Position numbers and translations under genes: made by a program
NCBI GenBank assembly: GCA_963745035.1
Contig: CAVUVW010000008.1
Location: 25,227 to 89,226 of the forward strand
Length of the DNA: 64,000 nucleotides
Direction: 5' to 3'
DNA from: an uncultured delta proteobacterium
GTDB taxonomy: Bacteria; Desulfobacterota; Binatia; UBA9968
Shown here: piece by piece, positions 19,924-31,003 of the stretch
Position numbering within the stretch: the stretch's first letter is position 1
How the letters are laid out: every line of letters starts with the position of its first letter
Notes under the pieces: generated by a model
What the model was told of the DNA's origin: nothing
What the model saw: the letters and a program-made list of their open reading frames with translations, nothing else
Database searches by the model: none

Positions 19924-20124
19924 AACACCTCTCCTTCACTGAAATTAATGATCACGAACTATTCTGAATCTTCTGAGCTGTCAACCAACAACACATTTTG
20001 GATTTTCTTTGATTTTGGATGGCGGGCAACGATTTCCTTTCCTATGTACTGTGGAAAGGCTATAACCAGGAAACTGTTTTGCGGCTATCGCCGCAGAGCC
20101 GTAACCAACGTCACAAAAGCGCGC

Positions 20125-20207
20125 TTCACCACGAAGCACACGAAGAGCACGAAGTTCGGTTATTTCTTATCCAAACCCTTCGTGCCCTTCGTGCCCTTCG
20201 TAGTGAA
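20125..20207. repeat. Inverted periodic CACGAAG/CTTCGTG repeat (9-nt period)
   Basis: TTCACCACGAAGCACACGAAGAGCACGAAG...CTTCGTGCCCTTCGTGCCCTTCGTAGTGAA. Confidence 0.85.
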
Positions 20208-21444
20208 TTCATCTGGCCTTAAGGAGATATACATCATTCGTATTTTCCACTCCCTGCGTTACCGCGATTATGCGCTCTTCTGGGGCACGGATCTGCTCGG
20301 TTCCATCGGCCACTTCGTCCAGGAGGTGGCGCTTTTCTGGATCACCTATGAAATCACCGGCTCGGCAATGGCGTTGGGACTTTTGGGCCTCAGCAGTGCG
20401 GCGCCCCGTCTGCTCCTCGGCGCCCTCAGCGGCGTATTGGTGGACCGCTATGATCGCAAGCTGCTGTTGATCCTGGTGCAATTCGTCTCCGCCATTCCCA
20501 TAGCCATTTTCCTCGCGATCTATGTTTTCGGCGCTCTCGCGTTCTGGCACCTTCTGGTGCTGGAGATTCTCTTCGGCTCCATCCGCGCGATCAATCCTTC
20601 GGCGGCGCAGTCGATCCTCGCGGAACTGGTGCCGCGGGAAGATCTGATGAACGCCGTCTCGCTCTACACCGTCGGCTTCAACATCGCCCGCATTGCTGGG
20701 CCGTCCCTCGGCGGCGTCCTGATCCTGTGGATCGGCATCGGCGGCTGCTACGCGCTATTCGCGGTCACCCTGTTGGTCTCAGGCGTGGGAATGCTGTTCA
20801 TTCGCACGAATAAGGAACAATCGATAAGGCCCGAAGAAAACTTCTTCCGCGAGTTCAAGGAAGGCTTTCATTATGTTTGGCATGCGCCCGTGATTTTAAG
20901 CAGTATCGTCGCCGCTTACACCTTCGCCGTGTTCATCGTCACCTATCAAAGCTTTCTTCCGGTTTTCGCCAAGGAGGTGCTGCAGGTGGGTCCGGAGGGA
21001 CTGGGCATATTGATGGCCGCGCCGGGATTGGGAGGCATCGCTTCATTGAGTTTTCTTGCTTCCATGGGTGAACGCTGGAACCGCGCCATGCTGTTGTGGT
21101 TCATGACCACGACGACGCCGATTTTTCTCATGCTCTTTTGCGTCTCGCCGATCTTCTGGCTCTCTGTCGTGCTCCTGGCGCTTGTGGGCGCCGGTCAGGT
21201 AAGTTTCCGCACCATCAGCCGCGTGATCATCCAGATCGAAGCACCGCGCAATCTTATGGGCCGGGTGATGAGCGTGTTCAATCTCGATCAAGGCATGCGC
21301 GCCATCGGTTCCATCGTGCTGGGCGCTTCCGCAACGTTCTTCGGCGCCTCTTTAGGCCTCGCTCTCACCGCCGCGATTTCCTTGACGGTAACGACGACTC
21401 TTTTCTATCGCTTGCTGGGAAAACGTGAATCACAAGCGCAATGA
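20203..21444 (+). CDS. MFS transporter (DHA3-like); start uncertain
   Basis: SLRYRDYALFW, GVLVDRYDRKLL, GRVMSVF; start either GTG at 20203 or a non-ATG codon after AAGGAG at 20221. Confidence 0.8.
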   Translation: MNSSGLKEIYIIRIFHSLRYRDYALFWGTDLLGSIGHFVQEVALFWITYEITGSAMALGLLGLSSAAPRLLLGALSGVLVDRYDRKLLLILVQFVSAIPIAIFLAIYVFGALAFWHLLVLEILFGSIRAINPSAAQSILAELVPREDLMNAVSLYTVGFNIARIAGPSLGGVLILWIGIGGCYALFAVTLLVSGVGMLFIRTNKEQSIRPEENFFREFKEGFHYVWHAPVILSSIVAAYTFAVFIVTYQSFLPVFAKEVLQVGPEGLGILMAAPGLGGIASLSFLASMGERWNRAMLLWFMTTTTPIFLMLFCVSPIFWLSVVLLALVGAGQVSFRTISRVIIQIEAPRNLMGRVMSVFNLDQGMRAIGSIVLGASATFFGASLGLALTAAISLTVTTTLFYRLLGKRESQAQ

Positions 21445-21446
21445 AG

Positions 21447-21629
21447 AACCGCAGAGGCACAGAGATCGCAGAGTTCGCAAATTATCGATGAACCAACCTA
21501 TACCGGCGTGCTCTAGGTCTCGGCAGTGAATTTCTGGACAACCATCCTCTATCCTCAATCGTCCATCCTCGACCCAATTCCCTTCTTGCGCCCCATCACT
21601 CCAATACTCCAAAACTCCATCACTCCATC
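21447..21629. repeat. Cluster of short periodic repeats (CAGAG x3, ATCCTC x3, ACTCCA x4)
   Basis: 21447-21473 CGCAGAG/CACAGAG with 9-nt period; 21542-21570 ATCCTC; ~21595-21629 ACTCCA with 8-nt period. Confidence 0.7.
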
Positions 21630-21699
21630 AGGCTCAACCTTGTCTTTCCCGCGCCTCCGCATGTATAGCCAAGACAAATCTTTCCGCAGAGGTGATTTC

Positions 21700-22711
21700 A
21701 TGCAGCTTCCGCCCATCGCCGCCACCACCATCGGCAGTTTTCCTCGTCCCAGTTGGCTCGCGCAGAACGAACGAAGCCGCGCGGTATTTCGCCTTGAAGG
21801 CGCCGCGCTCAAAGAGGCGCAGGATGACGCTACGGCGCTGAGTATCCACACGCAGGAGCGGATCGGCTTGGATCTCTTGTCCGACGGCGAACAGCGCCGC
21901 ACAGGTTTTATCAATCATATTCTCGCCGCCTTCGACGGCATCGATCTCGAACATGAAGCGGTGAAGCAAATCTATCGCCGCCGCGAGCAGCCGCGCCCGG
22001 TGCCGCGCGTGGTCGGCAAAATAAAAAGGCGCGCGCCTGCCATCGTCGAAGATCTGCGGTTCGCCAAAGCGCAGACCGGAAAACCGATCAAAATGGACGT
22101 GCCGGGCCCGATGACAGTCGTCGACAGCACGCTCGACGAGCATTACAAGGACGAGGCTACCTTAGCGATGGACGTCGCGGCGGCACTGAACGAAGAGCTG
22201 CGCGATCTACAGGCCGCAGGGTGCGACGTGCTGGAGATCGATGAACCCGCCATGACCCGCTACCACGAGAAAGTTTTCGCCTACGGCGCCAAAGCCCTCG
22301 ATCGCTGCCTCGAAGGCATCCATGTTCCGACCGTGGTGCATCTCTGCTACGGCTATCCGGGCGGCGCCGGAACCCAGCACGAATACGAATATCCCGAACT
22401 TCTCGCTGAATTGATGAAGACAAAGATCGGCGGTTTCGGCGTCGAATTCGCGCGCAGCAACTACGATCCTGCCGTGCTTGGCGCATGCAAAGGCCGCATC
22501 GTCATGTTCGGCTGCGTAGATCCTAGCGACACGCCGGTGCCGCCCGTCGCCAAAGTCGTCGAGCGCGTGCGCACGGCACTAAAATACATCGAACCCAACA
22601 ATCTGTGGCTCGCGCCCGACTGCGGCTTGATGACCGATCAGCCGAGAGTTGGCGAACGCGAAAGCGAAGTTGCTCGTCGAAGTCGCAAAGGAAGTCCGAA
22701 AGACCCTCTAG
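21700..22711 (+). CDS. Cobalamin-independent methionine synthase II (MetE C-terminal domain-only) family; frameshift ~22635
   Basis: IGSFPRP, DGEQRR, IDEP, HLCYG and PDCGL Zn ligands; corrected C-terminus ..MTISRELANAKAKLLVEVAKEVRKTL*. Confidence 0.85.
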
Positions 22712-22741
22712 AGTTACACACTATGAGCGTTGCTCCATCGA

Positions 22742-22847
22742 TGTCATCCTGAGCGCGAGGCGAAGGATCTGCTTTTTCCTAACGACGACATGTCACATCG
22801 CTGCGGCAAAAGCAGATTCTTCGTCGCAAGCGCTCCTCAGAATGACA
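22742..22847. repeat. REP-like inverted element TGTCATCCTGAG...CTCAGAATGACA
   Basis: Terminal inverted arms plus inner ATCTGCTTTT/AAAAGCAGAT; related element at 41661-41752. Confidence 0.7.
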
Positions 22848-22897
22848 CCGGTAAGAACAACTTCGGTAGACGACCACGCAAAGTGAGCAACACATCC

Positions 22898-23917
22898 ATG
22901 ACCAAACAACGCTACAACGCCAAGATCCAACGCGCCAAAGGCTTGCTCGAAATCGCCGCGGCCATGTACGAGACTTCACTTTCGTTTCAGACGACGCGAG
23001 CCGCAGAAAAAGTGCTGCAAACCGAGTCGCGCATCGGCCACGAACTGGAATTCAAACTACTTGCCGAAAATCGCGACGGCTCCAACAGCGTGCCTCTCTC
23101 CTTTGCCGCCGACAGCTTCGCCGAGCTGAAGGGAGTCGCAGACGGCAAGTACACGCTGGCCTGGGTCAATCCCACCGCTGCCGCAACGCTCGCCTACCGC
23201 GGCACCGGGCCGTTTAAGAGAAAACTTCCTTTGCGCGTGATCGCGACCTTTCCTTCCTATGACGTCATGGGCTTCGCCGTGCACAAGTCTACCGGCATTA
23301 CGTCCTTTTCACAGATTGCTAAAGAACGCTTTCCGCTGCGCCTCTCAACCAATGTCACCTCGAAAGAGATGATCACCGCCAGCCCCACTATGTTTACGGT
23401 CACCGCGGTGATGAAGGCTGCCGGTTTTACTCTTCCGGATCTAAAGAAATGGGGCGGCAAAGTGATCTCCGTTCCCCGGCCAAGCCATCCCGACCGGCGC
23501 GACGCAATTCAAAACGGCGCGGTCAATGCGGTCTTCGACGAAGGCATCAAAAGTTGGGGACAAACGGCGATCGACAGTGGTTTCATCTATTTGCCGATCG
23601 AAGGTCAGGTTTTGCGCCGTCTCGCGGCAATGGGCTATCAGACTTCGGTGGTGCCAAGATCGCGCTTCAAAGGCATGACCAGCGATGTTCCGACCGTCGA
23701 CTTCAGCGGCTGGCCGATGGTCGTGCGCGCCGATTTGCCCAATGATGTCGCCTATGCGCTCTGCGAAGCGATCGAAAAGCGCCGCAAGCTGATCCCGAGC
23801 GACAATTTCAAACCGATCAGCATGCGCCAGCTCTGCGCCAATGACGAAGAGGCTCCGTTCAACGTGCCGCTGCATCCGGGCGCCAAGCGCTTCTACCGTG
23901 AGCGCGGATATTTGTAG
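22898..23917 (+). CDS. TAXI family solute-binding-fold protein
   Basis: LRVIATFP, DFSGWP, PLHPGAKRFYRERG; paralog of 18931..19923; no obvious signal peptide. Confidence 0.8.
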   Translation: MTKQRYNAKIQRAKGLLEIAAAMYETSLSFQTTRAAEKVLQTESRIGHELEFKLLAENRDGSNSVPLSFAADSFAELKGVADGKYTLAWVNPTAAATLAYRGTGPFKRKLPLRVIATFPSYDVMGFAVHKSTGITSFSQIAKERFPLRLSTNVTSKEMITASPTMFTVTAVMKAAGFTLPDLKKWGGKVISVPRPSHPDRRDAIQNGAVNAVFDEGIKSWGQTAIDSGFIYLPIEGQVLRRLAAMGYQTSVVPRSRFKGMTSDVPTVDFSGWPMVVRADLPNDVAYALCEAIEKRRKLIPSDNFKPISMRQLCANDEEAPFNVPLHPGAKRFYRERGYL

Positions 23918-23941
23918 TGAGCTAAGCTTTCAGGCGCACCC

Positions 23942-24205
23942 ATGCCGACCCGGAAAGTGAAAAAGACGCGCGCCAAACGCCCACCCTCGTGCCCCGAATG
24001 TGGCGGCACAATGATCATTCCCGTGCTGCACGGTATCATCACTCCGGATATTCAGAAATCCATAGATGCCGGCGAAGCGATCCACGCCGACCGAGAAGAG
24101 TGGGAAGGCATTACCGAGTGGTATTGCAAATCCTGCGGCTGCGACTGGGGCCGCCACTCGCGGCGTTTCAAAAAAACCGGCGGCGTCAATGCCACCAAGG
24201 CGTAA
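23942..24205 (+). CDS. Small hypothetical Zn-ribbon-like protein
   Basis: CPECGG ... WYCKSCG pair of CxxC motifs. Confidence 0.6.
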   Translation: MPTRKVKKTRAKRPPSCPECGGTMIIPVLHGIITPDIQKSIDAGEAIHADREEWEGITEWYCKSCGCDWGRHSRRFKKTGGVNATKA

Positions 24206-24263
24206 CGCCACTGTAACCATTCTGTGGAAATAGTCTAAAGACGGCGGCTAATGGGAGATCTCC

Positions 24264-25022
24264 GTGGCCACTACCGAATCGAATCCGTTGCCTGCGCTTC
24301 CCGAGCAAGTTTCTCGGGTGCTCAACGAATTCATTGATGAGGCGCAAGCGGCCTTCGCCGCCGATCTGAAATCGATCGTGCTTTTCGGCAGCGCGGCCGA
24401 GGGGCGGCTCCGCGCCACATCCGACGTAAATCTCCTGCTCGTTCTCGGCAGATTTGATCCGGCCCGCGCCGAAGCGCTGCGTAGTCCGCTACGCGTCGCC
24501 CAGGCGGCGATACGTTTGAGCCCGATGTTCGTCCTGGAAGCTGAATTGTCGTCTGCGATCACAGCCTTTGCCGAAAAGTTTTCCGACATTTTACGCCGGC
24601 GCAAAGTCTTATATGGAGAAGACCCCTTCGTCGGCATAGAGATTCCCCGCGCGATATTGGCGGCGCGACTCGAGCAAGTGCTGCTGAACCTTATTCTTCG
24701 TCTGCGCGAAGCGTATGTCATGCGCGGACTACGAGAAGAACAACTTGCGATCGCCATCGCCGAGGCTGCGGGTCCGCTCCGCTCCTGCGCCGCCATGCTC
24801 CTAGAGCTGGAAGGACAAGGCGAAAATTCACCGCGAGCAGCTCTGGAAAAGTACGTGAAATCAACCGGCGAAGCGGCCTGGCTTGAATCCCTGCCCCGCA
24901 TGTCTGAAGCACGCGAGCAACGTGTGCTGCCCGCCGGCGTCAGTGGTCCGGTGCTATTGAGATTGATCGATGTCGCGAGATCGATCGAAAACCGTCTTCA
25001 GAAACTCAGAGGGGCGGAATGA
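24264..25022 (+). CDS. Nucleotidyltransferase-fold (Pol beta superfamily) protein with helical C-terminal domain
   Basis: SIVLFGSAAEG...SDVNLLLV motif; GTG start after GGGAG; ATGA overlap with next gene. Confidence 0.8.
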   Translation: MATTESNPLPALPEQVSRVLNEFIDEAQAAFAADLKSIVLFGSAAEGRLRATSDVNLLLVLGRFDPARAEALRSPLRVAQAAIRLSPMFVLEAELSSAITAFAEKFSDILRRRKVLYGEDPFVGIEIPRAILAARLEQVLLNLILRLREAYVMRGLREEQLAIAIAEAAGPLRSCAAMLLELEGQGENSPRAALEKYVKSTGEAAWLESLPRMSEAREQRVLPAGVSGPVLLRLIDVARSIENRLQKLRGAE

Positions 25023-25894
25023 TCAATCCTTTCGATCTTTCGGGTCCGGATTTTTTGATTTTCTATGGCTTATTGGGAATGCTGGTTCTTGGCGGACTGT
25101 TCGTCGTTGGGCGTTTGAGCGAATCGGGCACCGTGCCGAGACTCGACTACTCGGACCCGTATCTCCTGGCTTACCTTCGAGGCGGAGAAGCGGAGGTGAT
25201 CCGTGTCGCCGCCGCATCGCTCGCGGACCGCGGCCTTTTGCGAGTCGATAACAATCGCCTTTCCGCCGCCAATGCCACCGCACCGAGTCTCGTTCGAAGG
25301 CCGATCGAAAGCGCTATCCTTCAGCGCTTGACTATCCCGACAGACTTCACATCACTTTTTGACAGCACGACGCTGCGGGAGGCGTGCAAGGAATACAAAG
25401 ATAAGCTCGAACAACTGCGTTTGCTGCCGGACCAAAAGCTTGCGGGCGTACGGTTGAACCGACTGCTGATCACGCTGGCTATCCTGGGCGGTGTTGCATT
25501 GATTAAGATCGCCGTTGCTGTCACGCGCGGACGGCACAACATCTGGTTTTTGGTTGCCATGACTGTCGCCTTCTCTTTTATCGCCGTTCGAATTTACAAT
25601 CCTTTCAGGACAACCCGGGGAGATGCGCTACTCGCTGATCTAAGAACGCTCTTCGCGCCGTTGAAGAAGCGCGCTGCGATGATCAATCCGGGAGGCGCCA
25701 CCGGCGAGGCGGCTTTGCTGATGGCGGTATTTGGTCTCGGCACTCTGTCAATAAACGAGTTCCCGTTCATCAGCCTTTTCCGTGAGAAAATATCCAGCAG
25801 CACCGGTGGTGGATGCGGCTCATCCTACTCCTCGTGTAGCGGCGGTAGCTGCGGCGGAGGAGGTGGGTGCGGCGGCTGCGGGGGTGGGAGCTAA
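25019..25894 (+). CDS. TIGR04222-type membrane protein with Gly/Ser/Cys-rich C-terminal tail
   Basis: NPFDLSGPDFLIFY, DPYLLAYLRGG, SLADRGLL, three TM segments, RTTRG, tail SSSTGGGCGSSYSSCSGGSCGGGGGCGGCGGGS. Confidence 0.85.
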   Translation: MINPFDLSGPDFLIFYGLLGMLVLGGLFVVGRLSESGTVPRLDYSDPYLLAYLRGGEAEVIRVAAASLADRGLLRVDNNRLSAANATAPSLVRRPIESAILQRLTIPTDFTSLFDSTTLREACKEYKDKLEQLRLLPDQKLAGVRLNRLLITLAILGGVALIKIAVAVTRGRHNIWFLVAMTVAFSFIAVRIYNPFRTTRGDALLADLRTLFAPLKKRAAMINPGGATGEAALLMAVFGLGTLSINEFPFISLFREKISSSTGGGCGSSYSSCSGGSCGGGGGCGGCGGGS

Positions 25895-25896
25895 AG

Positions 25897-26766
25897 ATGC
25901 AAGATCGTTTCGGCATCGGCTGGCGGCCCGAGCTGGCTGCGGGGATTCTATCGAATCTCGCTCGCATCGACATCGTCGAGGTGATTGCCGACGACTATTT
26001 CGACGCATCGCGATCTCAACGCCGGGCTTTGAAGACTCTGGCGCGCCAGGTGCCGGTGGCGCTGCATGGAGTGACCCTCGGGCTGGCGTCGGCCGCTCCG
26101 GCTGATGTCCGGCGCTTAGAGCAAACCGCACGGCTGGTTGACGAAATCCAGCCGGAGTTTTGGTCGGAGCACCTCGCATTCGTCAGAGGCGGTGGAATCG
26201 AGATTGGCCATCTCGCAGCGCCGCCGCGGACAATGGCAACCATTGAAGGCACGGCAAGAAACCTGGCCGTAGCCGCAAAGACTGTGGGCACTCTTCCGCT
26301 TGTCGAAAACATCGCCACACTCATCGACCCACCGGCGAGTACCATCGGTGAAAGCGATTGGACCGCTCAGATCCTCCTTACAACCAGATGCCAACTTTTA
26401 CTGGATCTTCACAACCTCTACGCCAACTCCGTAAATTTCGCCTTCGATCCACGCGTCTATATCGACCATCTGCCACTAGAGCAAATCAGCGCTATTCATC
26501 TGGCCGGCGGGCGCTGGATCAAGGCAAAAACCTCCGATGAACGCCGCCTCCTCGACGATCATCTCCACGATGTTCCTCCACGTGTCTATAAACTTTTGGA
26601 ATACGTCGGAGAAATAGCCTCACGCCCGCTGATCGTTATCCTGGAACGCGATGGCCGGTATCCGCCAATAGAGCGGCTCCTAGGCCAGCTCGATTTCGCC
26701 CGGGACGCGCTCCGGCGTGGACGAATGAGACGGCGAGCAAATAAAGTGTCGGAGGCAGCAGCGTGA
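25897..26766 (+). CDS. DUF692 family multinuclear non-heme iron oxidative enzyme (MNIO)
   Basis: GIGWRPE, HGVTLGL, WSEHLAF, LVENIA, LLLDLHNLY, IHLAGG, DDH, LERD; ATG 2 nt after the upstream stop, with GGGAG RBS. Confidence 0.92.
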   Translation: MQDRFGIGWRPELAAGILSNLARIDIVEVIADDYFDASRSQRRALKTLARQVPVALHGVTLGLASAAPADVRRLEQTARLVDEIQPEFWSEHLAFVRGGGIEIGHLAAPPRTMATIEGTARNLAVAAKTVGTLPLVENIATLIDPPASTIGESDWTAQILLTTRCQLLLDLHNLYANSVNFAFDPRVYIDHLPLEQISAIHLAGGRWIKAKTSDERRLLDDHLHDVPPRVYKLLEYVGEIASRPLIVILERDGRYPPIERLLGQLDFARDALRRGRMRRRANKVSEAAA

Positions 26767-27017
26767 GCGCGCAAAAACTGGAAGCGTTCTTGGCGCGACT
26801 TTACGTTGACGATCAAGCTCGCGCTCGCTTCCTTGCCGACCCTGCCCGTGAAGCGTTGAACGCAGGACTTACTCCGGAAGAGTGCGCGATGCTCGAAACG
26901 ATCGATGTTATCGGACTCGAGCTCGCCGCCGAGAGTTTTGCCCGAAAGAGGGCTTACGCTTCGCCCAGCAATCCCCCTTCCAATCTGATTCGTCGGCTCT
27001 GGCGACGAGTAAAGTAA
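26763..27017 (+). CDS. 84-aa helical protein, probable MNIO partner
   Basis: GTGA overlap with DUF692 gene; LARLYVD...RARFLADP...GLT.EE...ID..GLELAA.SF.RKR. Confidence 0.7.
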   Translation: MSAQKLEAFLARLYVDDQARARFLADPAREALNAGLTPEECAMLETIDVIGLELAAESFARKRAYASPSNPPSNLIRRLWRRVK

Positions 27018-27084
27018 AAAGTACGTTGCGCCTGTTTCGCACCGCCCAGCTTGCCGGTTGTTGAGTCCTGTATTCCGCCATGAT

Positions 27085-27101
27085 ACCTAACATTAGGTTA
27101 G
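27085..27101. promoter_or_regulatory. Palindromic candidate operator upstream of the molybdate regulator
   Basis: ACCTAA-CA-TTAGGT (27085-27098) overlapping CTAAC-N5-GTTAG in an AT-rich patch. Confidence 0.4.
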
Positions 27102-27106
27102 ATATT

Positions 27107-28258
27107 ATGGCTATCACTACTTATTCACGAAGCGCGCCCCGGTTCGAAAGCCGCCTGCGCGAGAGGCGCCAGTCGCTCGGGCTTTCACAAAAGCAGGTCG
27201 CCGACCTGGCCGGGATCACCCGCCAAGCGGTAGCCGCTGTCGAGACAAACCAGTATTCCCCCGCGACCTCGGTCGCGCTCCAACTTGCTCGGGCGCTTCA
27301 CTGCCGCGTCGAAGATCTTTTCAGTCTCACGAGCAGCGAAGAAGTGGTCGAAGCCGAACTTGTCGGGTCTCGCCCTTCCGGTGGCGGCAAAATGCGCGCG
27401 CAACTGACTCAAGTCGGCGACCGGCTGCTGGCGCGCGCGCTGGAAGGCTCGGGTGAATTGGCGAGCCTCTCGACGAGCGCCGACGGTCTGATCGTCGCCG
27501 AAACAACGCGCAACCGAGTCAAAATCCAGCTCCTCAAAGAGCGCGATGCCGTGCGGCGGAAACTCGTCATCGCGGGCTGCGATCCGGCGATGTTCCTCGC
27601 CGCCAGGCACGTGCGAAAACACGACACTGAAGAGCTCGTTCCTTGCATGATGGGTAGCGGCATGGCGCTGGGCGCGTTGAAGCGCGGCGAGGTGCACGCG
27701 GCCGGCGCGCACTTCGCCGATGAAAACTCCAGCGGCAATCTCACCGACCTCAAACGTCATCTGGGCGGCCTGGATTGCCTCGTCGTCACCTTCGCCCATT
27801 GGGAGGAAGGCTTTCTTGTTCGGCGGGGCAATCCTAAAAAAATTCGCTCCGCGACCGATCTCGCGAAACCCGCCGTCAAGATCGTCAACCGCGAGAGAGG
27901 CTCCGGCGCGCGCCGATTGCTCGACCGGCAACTGCAAGCCGCGGGGATTCCGGCGGCGCGGGTCAGAGGCTATCGCGAGGAGGTTTTATCGCACCTCGAC
28001 GTCGCGTGGCGAGTGGAAGCGGGTCTCGCCGACGCCGGCGTCGGCGTGCGCGCCGCCGCGGCGATCCGCGGCCTCGATTTCGTGCCGCTCCAGCGCGAGC
28101 GTTACGATCTGATTATTTCCAAGGCGCATTATGAGAACTTGCCCGGCTTCAGAGTCTTGCTCGATACGGTAGTCGGCGGCCGCTTCAGAAGCGAGTTGGA
28201 AGCGCTCGGCGGCTACGACACCCGCGACACCGGACGAGTCGTGCTGCCCGCAGCGTGA
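27107..28258 (+). CDS. XRE-HTH + PBP-like (molybdate-binding) transcriptional regulator
   Basis: N-terminal LRERRQSLGLSQ..VADLAGITRQAV..VET HTH; C-terminal IAGCDPA, VNRERGSGAR, DFVPLQRERYDL, LGGYD. Confidence 0.85.
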   Translation: MAITTYSRSAPRFESRLRERRQSLGLSQKQVADLAGITRQAVAAVETNQYSPATSVALQLARALHCRVEDLFSLTSSEEVVEAELVGSRPSGGGKMRAQLTQVGDRLLARALEGSGELASLSTSADGLIVAETTRNRVKIQLLKERDAVRRKLVIAGCDPAMFLAARHVRKHDTEELVPCMMGSGMALGALKRGEVHAAGAHFADENSSGNLTDLKRHLGGLDCLVVTFAHWEEGFLVRRGNPKKIRSATDLAKPAVKIVNRERGSGARRLLDRQLQAAGIPAARVRGYREEVLSHLDVAWRVEAGLADAGVGVRAAAAIRGLDFVPLQRERYDLIISKAHYENLPGFRVLLDTVVGGRFRSELEALGGYDTRDTGRVVLPAA

Positions 28259-28291
28259 TACGCGCCTGCGCGATATCGCGGAGAACCTGAC

Positions 28292-29068
28292 ATGTTCGAG
28301 AAAAATCGACTCAAGCTTTTTGTATCGCCGGTCATTATTGTCGCGCTATTCTTTGCTTCGGGAAAAAGCGTGCGCGCCGATGATATCCTGGTCTCGGCGG
28401 CCGCGAGTCTCAGCGACGTTCTGCAAGAGATCAGCACGGCTTACCAGGCCAAGTCCAAGCACACGGTCAAATTCAATTTCGGCCCGTCCAGCGGCCTTGC
28501 CCGGCAGATCGACGAAGGCGCGCCGGCGGACATTTTCTTCTCGGCCGACCTGCCGCAGATGGATAATCTCGACAAGAAGAGCCGGCTCGAACCCGGGACG
28601 CGAAAAAACCTGTTATCGAACCAGTTGGTGATCATCGTGCCGGCGGACTCCAAGCTCACGATGTCCTCTCCCAAAGATTTACTGAAGGGCGACGTCAAGC
28701 GCATCGCCCTTGCCGAACCCTCCTCCGTGCCGGTCGGCGTTTACACGAGCAAATATCTGACGGACGAGGGAATGTGGGAGCAGGTCAAGCCGAAGATCGT
28801 GCCCGTCCAGGACGTGCGCGCCACCCTCGCATCGGTTGAGTCCGGCAATGTCGAAGCCGGTTTCGTCTACAAAACCGACGCCGCCGTTTCCAAGAAGGTG
28901 AAGATCGTCTACGAAGTCCCCATCGACAAAGGCCCCAAGATTACTTATCCCGTCGCGATCGTGAAAGACTCGAAGCGCAAAGAAGCAGCCCGGGACTTCC
29001 TGAATTATGTCCACGCTTCGGCGAGTAAGGAATTATTCAAGAAATACGGCTTCATCGTGATCGAGTGA
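28292..29068 (+). CDS. modA: Molybdate ABC substrate-binding protein
   Basis: SAAASL, FGPSSGLARQIDEGAPADIFFSA, VPVGVY, GFVYKTDA. Confidence 0.93.
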   Translation: MFEKNRLKLFVSPVIIVALFFASGKSVRADDILVSAAASLSDVLQEISTAYQAKSKHTVKFNFGPSSGLARQIDEGAPADIFFSADLPQMDNLDKKSRLEPGTRKNLLSNQLVIIVPADSKLTMSSPKDLLKGDVKRIALAEPSSVPVGVYTSKYLTDEGMWEQVKPKIVPVQDVRATLASVESGNVEAGFVYKTDAAVSKKVKIVYEVPIDKGPKITYPVAIVKDSKRKEAARDFLNYVHASASKELFKKYGFIVIE

Positions 29069-29122
29069 ACGCAAGGCACACTTCAAACGTGAAGCCTTAC
29101 TCCGCGGCCTACCGACCTCGAT

Positions 29123-29204
29123 TTCGTCACCCCCGAATGTTTTCGTCGGGAGTCCAGTTTCGGTCTCGCCTGGATTCCCGCTAAAAACATGCGGGAATGA
29201 CGAA
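29123..29204. repeat. REP/RPE-like palindrome (ATTCCCGC-N-GCGGGAAT type) between modA and modB
   Basis: TTCGTCACCCCCGA...TCGGGAGTCCAG...CTGGATTCCCGC...GCGGGAATGACGAA. Confidence 0.75.
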
Positions 29205-29255
29205 CGGAAAACCAATCATCATGCAGCAGGCAAGCGCCGCGTCAGAATCGAACCC

Positions 29256-29930
29256 ATGATGTTCTCCTTCGAGACCTGGCAAATCACGCTCTTTTCACTA
29301 TCAGTCGGCCTTGCCAGTACGCTGCTGATTCTACCGTTTGGCATCGCGCTGGCGTGGCTGTTTGCACGCAAGGAATGGCCGCTCAAGAGCGTCATCGAGA
29401 CCATCGTGCTTCTGCCGCTGGTCATGCCGCCGGTTTCGACCGGGCTGATTCTGCTCAAGATCTTCGGACGGCGGAGCCCGCTCGGCCAGTGGCTTTACGA
29501 GCGTGGCATCGAGATCGTCTTCAACTGGAAGGGCGTGCTCATCGCCATGTCGGTGATGTCCTTTCCATTGCTCGTCCGCTCGGTTAGGACGTCATTTGGG
29601 GACGTCAATCCGCGGCTGGAGCAGATCGCCGCCACTCTCGGCGCGTCGCCGCTGAGAATTTTCTTCGTCATCACAATTCCCCTCGCCTACAAAGGCATCG
29701 TCGCCGGCGCACTGCTGGCGTTTTCGCGCGCTCTCGGCGAATTCGGCGCGACCATTTTGTTGGCCGGCAATATCCCGGGCGAAACCCAGACTTTGTCGCT
29801 GGCGATTTATAACTTCGTGCAACTGGGCAAGGATCCCGAAGCCTACGTCCTGCTCGGCATAACAGTCGCGCTGGCGTTTCTGTTCGTGTGGTCGTCGGAA
29901 TGGCTGCTGCGCTCGGAAAAGAAGACGTGA
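29256..29930 (+). CDS. modB: Molybdate ABC permease
   Basis: LPLVMPPV, FPLLVR, FSRALGEFGATI, GNIPG. Confidence 0.93.
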   Translation: MMFSFETWQITLFSLSVGLASTLLILPFGIALAWLFARKEWPLKSVIETIVLLPLVMPPVSTGLILLKIFGRRSPLGQWLYERGIEIVFNWKGVLIAMSVMSFPLLVRSVRTSFGDVNPRLEQIAATLGASPLRIFFVITIPLAYKGIVAGALLAFSRALGEFGATILLAGNIPGETQTLSLAIYNFVQLGKDPEAYVLLGITVALAFLFVWSSEWLLRSEKKT

Positions 29931-29931
29931 A

Positions 29932-31003
29932 ATGAAGCTCCGCTGCCGCATACCGCTGGCGAATTTCGAGCTCGATGTCGACGCCGCTTTCGAATCGCGC
30001 GTCACCGCGATATTTGGGCCGTCGGGTTCCGGCAAAACGACATTGCTGGATGCCATCGCCGGGTTGCGCACGGTCGCCGATGGCGAGATCGAGATCAGCG
30101 GCAAAACACTCTTCTCTTCGGAGCGTAAAATCAATCTGCCGCCGCGACAGCGGGGCGTCGGCTACGTGCCGCAGGAAGGCGCGCTCTTCCCGCATCTTTC
30201 CGTGCAACGAAATATTTTATTCGGCGCCGAGCGCGCGGGCCATGCCGGTTCGAGCAACATCAACATGGAGCATGTCCTCCACGTGTTGGAAATCGGCCAT
30301 CTCCTTCCCCGGTACCGTCACCAAAATCTCCGGTGGCGAGGCCCAGCGCGTCGCCTTGGCGCGCGCAATCCTGTCGCGCCCACAGCTCCTCCTGCTGGAT
30401 GAACCTTTGGCGGCCCTCGATGTCGGGCTCAAGGAAAGAATTTTGCCGTACCTCGCCAGGGTGCGCGATGAATTCGCGATCCCGATGATGTACGTGACCC
30501 ACAATCTGACGGAAGTTTTAACCCTGGCCGACTGGGTGTTGATGATTCAACAAGGCAGATTGGCTGCGCAAGGACCGCCGAAAGAACTGCTTGGCTCGCG
30601 CCAAGCGGCGATCCGGCTCGCCGCCGAACCGCTGGATAACATCTTCACCGCGATGTTTATCGAATCCGATAAAGAAGCGGGCCGAAGCCGGGTTCGGCTT
30701 TCGTCGGGGACGGAAATCTTTATCCCCTACTTGGTCGCGCCCGCCGGTGCGCCGCTGCAGATCCGCATCAGCGCCGAGGATATCCTCGTCGGAACGAAGC
30801 AGCCCGAGGGGATTTCGGCGGGCAACATTTTTCCGGGGACCATCCGGGCTCTCGAGTTTTTGGACGGCCAAGCTCTGCTTACCGTGCATACCGGTGAAGA
30901 GTTTTATGTGCGCCTCACCTCGGGAGCGGCCGCGCGTCTCGGTCTCGCGGTCGGAGCCGACGTCTTTCTCATCATAAAAACCCGCTCGTTCGCGGTTCTG
31001 TAA
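29932..31003 (+). CDS. modC: Molybdate ABC ATPase with TOBE domains (frameshift ~30305-30315)
   Basis: GPSGSGKT, VPQE, ISGGEAQR, LLLLDEP, YVTH, ISAGN; split over ORFs 29932..30402 and 29975..31003. Confidence 0.88.

Follow-up and report, generated by a model that had tools for sequence, protein, structure and literature searches.

A 64,000-nucleotide stretch of DNA from an uncultured delta proteobacterium (Desulfobacterota; Binatia; UBA9968; GenBank assembly GCA_963745035.1, contig CAVUVW010000008.1, positions 25,227 to 89,226 of the forward strand), which we call the window, carries at positions 24264-27017 a cassette of four genes. They encode a nucleotidyltransferase (NTase)-like protein, a TIGR04222 membrane protein with a C-terminal tail rich in Gly, Ser and Cys, a multinuclear non-heme iron oxidase (MNIO; DUF692) and a small helical protein. 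The four-gene cassette is a real functional unit, and its arrangement is far beyond chance, as dozens of genomes spread over many phyla have the same unit. From comparative sequence evidence we favor, with somewhat better than even confidence, a reading in which the cassette has spread horizontally, the tail of the membrane protein serves as an in-cis substrate that is oxidized by the MNIO with the small protein as its helper, and the NTase forms a separate module.

The four-gene cassette and its recurrence

The open reading frame (ORF) listing places all four genes on the + strand: the NTase-like gene at 24264-25022 (252 aa), the TIGR04222 gene at 25019-25894 (291 aa), the MNIO gene at 25897-26766 (289 aa from its ATG) and the small-protein gene at 26763-27017 (84 aa). 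Inspection of the letters at the junctions revealed that the NTase and TIGR04222 genes share an ATGA stop/start overlap (25019-25022), that a TAA at 25892-25894 is followed by a 2-nt gap and the ATG of the MNIO gene at 25897, and that the MNIO and small-protein genes share a GTGA stop/start overlap (26763-26766). An in-frame GTG at 25867 is an alternative start for the MNIO gene and gives a product of 299 aa instead of 289 aa. A preliminary description of this DNA had reported four coupled genes on one strand, joined by these two overlaps and the 2-nt gap, and both the ORF listing and the junction letters agree with it.

Gene co-occurrence was examined in two sets of related loci. The NTase-seeded set was drawn by a degenerate-pattern scan with a 3-row NTase alignment and one genome per species, and it consists of the best 80 of 210 relatives, at 46-61% identity. 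These loci come from records of metagenome-assembled genomes (MAGs) labeled as Acidobacteriota, Myxococcota, Chloroflexota, Nitrospirae, Verrucomicrobiota, Burkholderiales, Bdellovibrio-like groups, Elusimicrobiota, Armatimonadia and Heliomicrobium, and their neighboring genes were called by local phmmer on all six-frame ORFs. The MNIO-seeded set consists of the best 80 of 188 relatives, at 56-74% identity; 77 of its loci are evaluable for TIGR04222 (3 are cut) and 70 for the NTase (10 are not evaluable). Residue conservation was read from alignments of 77 NTase, 75 TIGR04222, 62 MNIO and 57 small-protein sequences.

A TIGR04222 homolog lies directly downstream of the NTase gene in all 80 NTase-seeded loci, often with overlapping codons. 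An MNIO is present in 64 of the 75 loci that are not cut at the TIGR04222 gene, and the small protein accompanies it in 58 of the 59 MNIO loci that are not cut at a contig end, with L089 as the exception. Eleven NTase-seeded loci have no MNIO within a downstream flank of at least 1.4 kb. In the MNIO-seeded set, every one of the 77 evaluable loci has TIGR04222 upstream, and the small protein is found downstream in 80 of 80. The NTase is present in 58 of 70 evaluable loci and absent from the other 12 despite at least 1.7 kb of upstream room, and a hidden Markov model (HMM) of the 77-row NTase alignment gave no match in these 12 loci either. The MNIO clade is strictly tied to TIGR04222 and the small protein, and the NTase is frequent but dispensable. 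No homologous MNIO unlinked to a TIGR04222 gene, the observation that the preliminary description had named as fatal to its proposal, was found among the evaluable loci, and the co-occurrence of all four genes, which it had proposed to check, holds for three of them but not always for the NTase. These linkages support an MNIO that would be dedicated to the TIGR04222 protein.

The host genome (7.4 Mb in 28 contigs, 92.6% complete) contains one MNIO gene and one TIGR04222 gene, which are the adjacent pair of this locus. DUF2063 (PF09836) has zero matches across this genome at that level of completeness, and no DoxX gene is encoded in positions 20000-31000 of the window, so that the absence of both from the neighborhood, as first described, extends genome-wide for DUF2063. 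Likewise, the apparent lack of a free-standing precursor peptide holds beyond this locus: a conserved Cys-rich free-standing precursor is not present in the cassette across the relatives. The GC content at the locus has no local anomaly. Scans of positions 23800-27300 gave 3 promoter-like sites where 1.2 were expected and 10 terminator-like sites where 4.2 were expected, none of them informatively placed at the operon ends.

The Cys/Gly tail and its candidate maturases

The TIGR04222 protein matches its model over positions 1-228 of 229, with 104.4 bits against a cut-off of 43. A soluble domain (residues 31-147) with the motif DPYL.AYLRGG is conserved in the 75-sequence alignment, and family-averaged hydropathy gives three hydrophobic segments (about residues 12-30, 148-166 and 175-190) and a fourth, weaker one (231-247). 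The C-terminal tail (residues 259-291; 25793-25891, + strand), which is the proposed in-cis substrate, has 5 Cys residues (C266, C273, C278, C284 and C287), each followed by Gly or Ser, and C284, G285 and G286 are invariant in the same alignment. In relatives, the tails consist of C-G-S-S repeats and then C-G-G-G-C-G-G-G-C-G-G-C-G. Among the 78 complete tails of the 80 NTase-seeded loci, 77 have 4-9 Cys within the last 60 residues (the tail in L055 has 2), and tails are alike in loci with and without an MNIO. By these alignments, the Cys/Gly tail is the most conserved feature of the substrate candidate. A weak match to DUF2207_C (17.6 bits, under the cut-off of 33; E = 0.0033) is the sole lead toward a kinship of the TIGR04222 and TPM/DUF2207 tail modules, and composition bias is a confounder for such a kinship.

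Cys/Gly tails were also seen in other settings. Four other TIGR04222 genes of the host phylum (L037-L040) have tails that end in ...C-G-G-C-G-G-G-D, and a phmmer search of their flanks of about 1.5 kb found no cassette-type NTase, MNIO or small protein; radical S-adenosylmethionine (SAM) enzymes were not searched for there. A Bryobacterales locus (L003:4399-5936) has a TIGR04222 gene with a Cys/Gly tail and no MNIO nearby, and the 198-aa protein encoded upstream of it has no Pfam or NCBIfam match.

The distribution of Lys and Arg bears on the side of the membrane at which the tail is found. The number of these residues per sequence is 0.39 in the N-terminus before segment 1, 2.35 after segment 1, 2.43 before segment 2, about 2.6 in the short loop between segments 2 and 3, and 6.7 in residues 191-220. 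By the positive-inside rule, these counts favor a predicted topology in which the N-terminus is outside and both the domain of residues 31-147 and residues 191-230 are in the cytoplasm. The tail is cytoplasmic if residues 231-247 do not span the membrane and outside if they do.

The MNIO matches PF05114 (MbnB_TglH_ChrH) over profile positions 2-261 of 263, with 219.9 bits against a cut-off of 25 (E = 4.6e-65). Residues H57, E91, H92, H105, E137, N138, D170, N173, H201, D220, D221, H222 and H224 are invariant in the 62 MNIO relatives, and H172, E250 and D252 are kept in at least 90% of them; the His/Glu/Asp/Asn motifs of DUF692 that had been recognized in the single sequence, which include the putative iron ligands, are conserved across the relatives as well. 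The best NCBIfam models for this MNIO are the BufB equivalog (NF050167), at 185.7 bits against a cut-off of 310, and the HvfB equivalog (NF003818), at 140.9 bits against a cut-off of 360. The nearest solved chains by sequence are 3bww (E = 4e-29), TglH 8hci (4e-13) and MbnB 7dz9 (4e-4).

In loci without an MNIO, a radical SAM/SPASM protein is often encoded after the TIGR04222 gene. All five of these proteins that were scanned (from L072, L108, L073, L107 and L098) score 494-538 bits against TIGR04082 (thio(seleno)oxazole modification radical SAM maturase SbtM; cut-off 350), the name SbtM being that of NCBIfam alone. The matches are confined to model positions 195-516 of 516, the first ~195 positions being missing, and the radical SAM protein of L106 has, by eye, the same N-terminal motif. 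PF05114 has matches in none of the five genomes with a scanned radical SAM protein (completeness not given), and therefore the radical SAM enzyme stands in place of the MNIO rather than coming after it. A dual TrkA-N K+-channel protein is encoded after the TIGR04222 gene in L073, L107 and L122 (scanned) and in L106 (by eye), and the radical SAM gene follows the K+-channel gene in L073, L106 and L107. In L004, a TIGR04222 locus of more distant kinship, the tail is likewise followed by a radical SAM gene. The host genome has zero SbtM matches, and literature searches on SbtM, TIGR04082, selenobufferin and selenooxazole found nothing relevant. That one and the same tail is accompanied by members of two unrelated peptide-maturase families is the strongest indirect evidence for the tail as a putative substrate.

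The small protein has a conserved domain in residues 1-63 and a variable basic tail in residues 64-84, and K62 is invariant in 57 sequences. The window copy scores 30.1 bits against NF038399 (Os1348 NHLP clan), under the cut-off of 40, and this model is matched by 51 of the 57 small-protein relatives at E <= 0.01, with a best value of 1.6e-11. The LigA match of the window copy is weak (E = 2.4e-4), and a PDB profile search gave LigA-domain and SonA (borosin precursor) chains at E ~1e-4, followed by nitrile hydratase alpha chains. The AlphaFold2 model (predicted local distance difference test, pLDDT, 85.9) has five helices. Foldseek ranks 1-3 are occupied by 6lk7 (Os1348), after which come SonA chains; for 6lk7 the template modeling score (TM) is 0.59-0.61 on the query and 0.65-0.73 on the target, with an E value of 0.04-0.13 that is weak as the domain is small.

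Precursors of the NHLP clan are laid out as a leader followed by a cleavable core peptide. In the 57-sequence alignment no residue beyond K62-R63 is conserved, and a leader-plus-core layout is not found; the tails are 4-59 aa long, with 32% K+R and 3% D+E, and Cys occurs in 2 of the 57 sequences. The small protein is fused in frame to the C-terminus of the MNIO in four NTase-seeded loci (L048, L070, L071 and L094) and three further MNIO-seeded ones, seven in all, and the two genes overlap by 4 nt in 43 of 58 related loci under the start-picking rule used. PF09836 (DUF2063) has no match on the 84-aa protein, and the DUF2063/TglI structures 3dee (NGO1945) and 8hi7 (TglI) are not among the Foldseek matches listed, which is a weak exclusion given the small domain. 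Given its fusions to the MNIO, the 4-nt gene overlaps and a basic end that is not conserved, we do not take the small protein to be a substrate. It reads as a leader-type docking domain without a core, either lost or never had, that serves the MNIO. The sequence profiles and the model suggest that it is a core-less NHLP/LigA-clan domain and not an MNIO partner of the DUF2063/MbnC type; the small partner of the preliminary description is thus retained as an MNIO subunit, on the evidence of fusions and overlaps, but its type has changed. In L048 (2953-5079), a single frame of 709 aa encodes the MNIO together with the NHLP-clan domain and an alpha/beta-hydrolase domain, the last of which may be an extra processing activity.

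The NTase-like protein, its paralogs and the surroundings of the cassette

The profile searches proposed in the preliminary description place the membrane protein and the MNIO above the TIGR04222 and PF05114 cut-offs, but not the first protein above that of NTP_transf_2 (PF01909), which it matches with 19.3 bits against 21. Its score is 23.9 bits against a cut-off of 60 for MntA (NF047752), and its neighbor is TIGR04222 in 80 of 80 loci, not HEPN; the ANT(3'')/ANT(9) NCBIfam models give 14-22 bits against cut-offs of 193-545. The AlphaFold2 model (pLDDT 95.5) comprises an NTase domain and a helical domain. The best Foldseek matches are AadA, ANT(9) and KNTase, at E ~2e-6 and TM 0.45-0.54, and the Foldseek probability is 1.00 to these three and to HalB and MntA, in agreement with an NTase fold. 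The linkage to TIGR04222 in 80 of 80 loci led us to reject the reading of this gene as an unrelated resistance or antitoxin gene.

The Pol-beta NTase motif is G-[SG] ... D-x-[DE]. Here it reads G42-S43 ... S53-D54-V55-N56, that is, D-x-N in place of D-x-[DE]. Residues G42, S43, A45, E46, G47, S53, D54, N56, E94, D108, R112, G118, Q138, N142, R146, R148, P171, R173 and A176 are invariant in 77 NTases. Nucleotidyl transfer is not assured because the second catalytic carboxylate is missing in the invariant D-x-N. The predicted-complex scores for the NTase with the full-length TIGR04222 protein, both entered as alignments, are 0.10 and 0.09 against a mark of 0.32, values that weigh neither for nor against a contact.

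Distant relatives of the NTase, at no more than 34% identity, occur in 87 of 401 sampled genomes of the host phylum. TIGR04222 scores above cut-off in 5 of the 401, and of these only the host is also on the list of genomes with an NTase match. The D-x-N is found in 29 of 29 distant loci, and in 28 of them the NTase lies between a Gly-tailed TPM-domain membrane protein and LemA; a Pfam check of these neighbors identified TPM in 3 of 3 and LemA in 3 of 3 proteins tested. The two NTase clades are full-length homologs (hhalign probability 99.84%, E = 2.6e-30, 243 columns). A clade-2 set was then collected from named genomes with an 8-row sub-alignment as query; its best 80 of 129 relatives are mostly from Thermodesulfobacteriota, with some from KSB1, Deferribacteres, Cytophagia and Calditrichaceae. 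Both TPM and LemA are present in 69 of these 80 loci, 10 miss one of the two and have a short flank, and L231 is without TPM. The TPM gene ends directly before the NTase gene, and all 80 proteins have the D-x-N. The TPM-NTase-LemA arrangement (L008-L036, L201-L280 and L281-L285) was seen in Thermodesulfobacteriota, in Acidobacteriota-labeled records and in others. The invariance of D-x-N in 77 cassette, 29 host-phylum and 80 named clade-2 sequences argues for a site that is probably preserved and selected.

Five genomes with an NTase-less cassette each have one clade-2 NTase elsewhere, which LemA adjoins in 5 of 5 and TPM in 4 of 5 (the fifth is cut); in the host genome, the cassette copy is the only NTase of the family. 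The common denominator of the family is a preceding membrane protein with a glycine-rich C-terminal tail, and not Cys chemistry. This does not agree with the NTase as an extra tailoring or regulatory component of the MNIO system, as it had first been pictured: the NTase stays with TIGR04222 in the 11 loci that lack an MNIO, a portion of the TIGR04222-MNIO-small-protein trios lack it, and its paralogs adjoin another glycine-tailed membrane protein without an MNIO. The role of the NTase is most likely tied to the tailed membrane protein and not to the MNIO, as judged by gene neighborhoods. Literature searches found no paper on a link of LemA and the TPM domain with a nucleotidyltransferase, or of MNIOs with a nucleotidyltransferase.

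Upstream of the cassette, an 87-aa ORF (23942-24205, + strand) with a CxxC ... CxxC pattern is zinc-ribbon-like by weak family matches, ends 58 nt before the NTase gene and is covered by an RNA-library contig. As a candidate precursor it was ruled out, being zinc-ribbon-like and replaced by a different upstream gene in L001 and L002. Directly downstream (27080-31003, + strand) are an HTH_3 + PBP_like regulator with a molybdate-type binding domain and three ORFs that by eye resemble a modABC-type ATP-binding cassette transporter. Since the flanking genes differ in L001 and L002, the regulator and transporter are not part of the cassette. In one related locus, from a Rubrivivax-labeled MAG (L115, 6609-9922), about 3.3 kb of very GC-rich DNA with long overlapping ORFs separates the TIGR04222 and MNIO genes. 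Short metatranscriptome contigs from three libraries of two studies match, at no less than 95% identity, the NTase, TIGR04222 and MNIO genes (word shares 0.08-0.15), and one of them (25831-25980) spans the TIGR04222/MNIO junction; gaps in this coverage carry no weight. This is a weak hint that the cassette is expressed, as DNA carry-over is possible in RNA libraries. Nearly the whole stretch is present in soil, rhizosphere and winery metagenome DNA runs from several studies.

Proposed mechanism, alternatives and known systems

The gene order, coupling, co-occurrence, folds and motif conservation described above are observations, from which we infer each biochemical step of the following scheme. 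The MNIO, held by the core-less NHLP/LigA-clan docking subunit, would oxidize the tail cysteines, and this subunit would stand in for the usual DUF2063/MbnC-type partner. By analogy with MbnB, HvfB and BufB, the cysteines of Cys-Gly and Cys-Ser pairs may be converted to oxazolone/thioamide or thiooxazole-type groups, and the product would be a membrane-anchored tail that is metal-binding (probably copper) or redox-active. Modification would take place on the cytoplasmic side because all three accessory proteins are without export signals, and the enzyme may be kept at the membrane by the end of the small protein, which is polybasic and often amphipathic. The NTase, as a separate module with the tailed membrane protein, most likely binds nucleotide and would have the glycine-rich tail of its neighbor, or the cytoplasmic side of that protein, as its target or partner, with priming, AMPylation or nucleotide-gated handling as possible roles. 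The central proposal of the preliminary description, that the MNIO modifies the tail of an integral membrane protein, gains support from linkage and from maturase swapping, both of them comparative evidence.

Several observations weigh against parts of this scheme. With an Asn in place of the second metal-binding carboxylate, the NTase may transfer no nucleotides, and its absence from 12 of 70 TIGR04222-MNIO-small-protein loci means that it is not essential for the MNIO step. If residues 231-247 span the membrane, the tail is external, as PMC12452194 predicts, and modification must precede translocation. The scores of the MNIO against BufB and HvfB are below their cut-offs, and product chemistry is not confidently transferable from these enzymes. 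The nearest structural relatives of the small protein, SonA and Os1348 (a small precursor protein according to PMC7726476), are precursors of peptides that are made on the ribosome and modified after translation (RiPPs) and not enzyme subunits. Finally, no maturase was seen beside the NTase-TIGR04222 pair within the flanks of L064, L114, L117, L121 and L122.

Two alternatives deny that the tail is the target of the MNIO, and both seem to us very unlikely. The kinship of the small protein to RiPP precursors or leader domains, together with a conserved N-terminal domain and a variable C-terminal part that resemble the usual precursor layout, would fit the 84-aa protein being the true MNIO substrate, with a leader and a hypervariable core; the TIGR04222 protein would then be an exporter, anchor or immunity protein with an unmodified tail. 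However, no residue of the variable part is conserved, its length varies from 4 to 59 aa, it is about one-third basic and has Cys in just two of the aligned sequences, there is no Gly-Gly type cleavage motif, and this protein is naturally fused in frame to the MNIO in seven loci. The Cys tail, moreover, is far better conserved and persists with the other maturase where the small protein is absent. Equally improbable, in our estimate, is that the tail is an unmodified, metallothionein-like Cys/Gly metal-binder and that the MNIO acts on a small molecule or on another protein. One-third of complete genomes with TIGR04222 are without any MNIO according to Table 3 of PMC12452194, four host-phylum genes with Cys/Gly tails have no MNIO match within about 1.5 kb (radical SAM genes not having been searched for), and unmodified HvfA also binds Cu(I), as stated in PMC11252979. 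These facts would be accommodated by an unmodified tail, but such a tail does not explain why the MNIO clade is never without TIGR04222 in the 77 evaluable loci or why two unrelated peptide-maturase families alternate beside the same tail, and the characterized MNIOs named in the cited MNIO papers act on peptides or proteins.

A third alternative concerns the NTase, which could be a pseudo-enzyme, that is, a non-catalytic nucleotide- or tail-binding scaffold that chaperones or gates the glycine-tailed membrane protein. We regard this as somewhat unlikely. It is consistent with the D-x-N in every member examined of the three sequence groups, with scores under every curated family cut-off, and with the trios that do without the NTase. 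Set against it, G-S, D54, E94 and D108 are invariant, as are several Arg residues in the helical domain, a pattern that a functional nucleotide site would be expected to show. E94 sits 40 residues past D54, which we take to be the same distance as that of E87 past D47 in AadA. In addition, Asn can ligate Mg2+, and the fold matches active ANT enzymes across both domains.

Returning to the tail as substrate, we can extend the scheme in a more speculative direction, one that we consider unlikely though worth stating. The D-x-N NTases may be dedicated, nucleotide-using processors of Gly-rich membrane-protein tails, with a clade for TPM/YgcG-type proteins in LemA operons and a clade for TIGR04222 proteins; in the latter, the nucleotide-dependent step (possibly O-AMPylation of a tail Ser or of the C-terminal segment) would prime or gate a RiPP-like, protein-templated change of the tail, carried out either by an O2-dependent MNIO with a core-less leader-type domain or by an O2-independent SbtM-type enzyme. 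If this is true, it would provide the first functional handle on the widespread, unexplained LemA-TPM module and an example from nature in which a leader-type domain acts in trans or as part of its enzyme. Should the tail indeed be modified, MNIO chemistry would reach the end of a full-size membrane protein, beyond small secreted peptides, and soil bacteria of many phyla would have a membrane-tethered metal- or redox-active group. The cassette defines a new kind of MNIO partner, a putative core-less NHLP/LigA-clan domain that in some loci is joined to the enzyme. On one candidate substrate, an O2-dependent maturase alternates with an unrelated radical SAM maturase, and a shared NTase family links the cassette to the very common LemA-TPM operons.

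The co-occurrence of TIGR04222 and DUF692, which the preliminary description guessed might have been noted in genomic surveys, was indeed published in silico in 2025 (PMC12452194, Microb Genom). There, 40% of the Cys proteins that have no signal peptide and are encoded ahead of MNIO genes belong to TIGR04222; the TIGR04222 proteins have Ser/Gly-rich C-terminal regions interspersed with Cys, and a subset was proposed as MNIO substrates. The TIGR04222-MNIO clusters of that paper have no DUF2063; partners of PME-type 2, which is DUF2063-like, occur in at least 10% of the clusters, and many are without a partner. Its main text makes no mention of nucleotidyltransferase, NTP_transf, NHLP, LigA, SbtM or SPASM, and in the portion at hand radical SAM appears solely in the reference list. 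The NHLP-clan partner and its MNIO fusions, the D-x-N NTase and its TPM-LemA kinship, and the SbtM-type alternative are not in that main text. The very small proteins encoded after MNIO genes that PMC12452194 terms adjamnio-V may be the small-protein family described here.

The clusters of PMC12452194 and the present cassette share a signal-peptide-less TIGR04222 protein with a Cys/Ser/Gly tail encoded directly before the MNIO and no DUF2063 (PME-type 1), and in that paper the tail is likewise proposed as the substrate and the MNIO is close to the bufferin and oxazolin enzymes. They differ in that the published partners are DUF2063-like or none, whereas the partner here is an NHLP-clan domain, and in that the paper predicts large periplasmic domains and an external tail, whereas the Lys and Arg counts favor a cytoplasmic domain of residues 31-147. 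In the HvfB/HvfA and BufB systems, too, a multi-iron MNIO acts on several Cys-Gly cysteines to give a copper-binding heterocycle/thioamide, according to PMC11252979 and PMC12452194; the former states that HvfB turns the cysteines of Lys-Cys-Gly into Cu(I)-binding oxazolone/thioamide pairs. The HvfA and bufferin substrates, however, are Sec-exported peptides and the partner is a DUF2063-RRE, whereas the candidate substrate here, the tail, belongs to a polytopic membrane protein of 291 aa and the partner is not of that type.

The closest parallels for the small protein are the split borosin pair SonA/SonM and Os1348 (PDB 7ltc, 8t1s and 6lk7), with which it shares a 63-residue helical domain of the LigA/NHLP type. 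SonA docks on its modifying enzyme through this domain. In SonA and Os1348 the domain is a precursor leader that precedes a core, whereas here no core is conserved and the domain is sometimes fused to the enzyme. The NTase resembles AadA, ANT(9) and KNTase in length and in its N-terminal Pol-beta NTase and C-terminal helical domains, and the G-S motif and the first Asp align; the sequence match, however, covers residues 13-71 only, and D-x-N stands where those enzymes have D-x-D/E. The cassette NTase gene is in every case coupled to a gene for a membrane protein, and nothing speaks for labeling it a resistance gene. A further likeness is to the LemA/TPM (YgcG-type) operons, in which a D-x-N NTase paralog directly follows a Gly-tailed TPM protein and so mirrors the NTase-TIGR04222 pair. 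The TPM tails differ in being composed of Phe, Ser and Gly without Cys, and the 80 clade-2 loci that encode them have no MNIO or radical SAM match.

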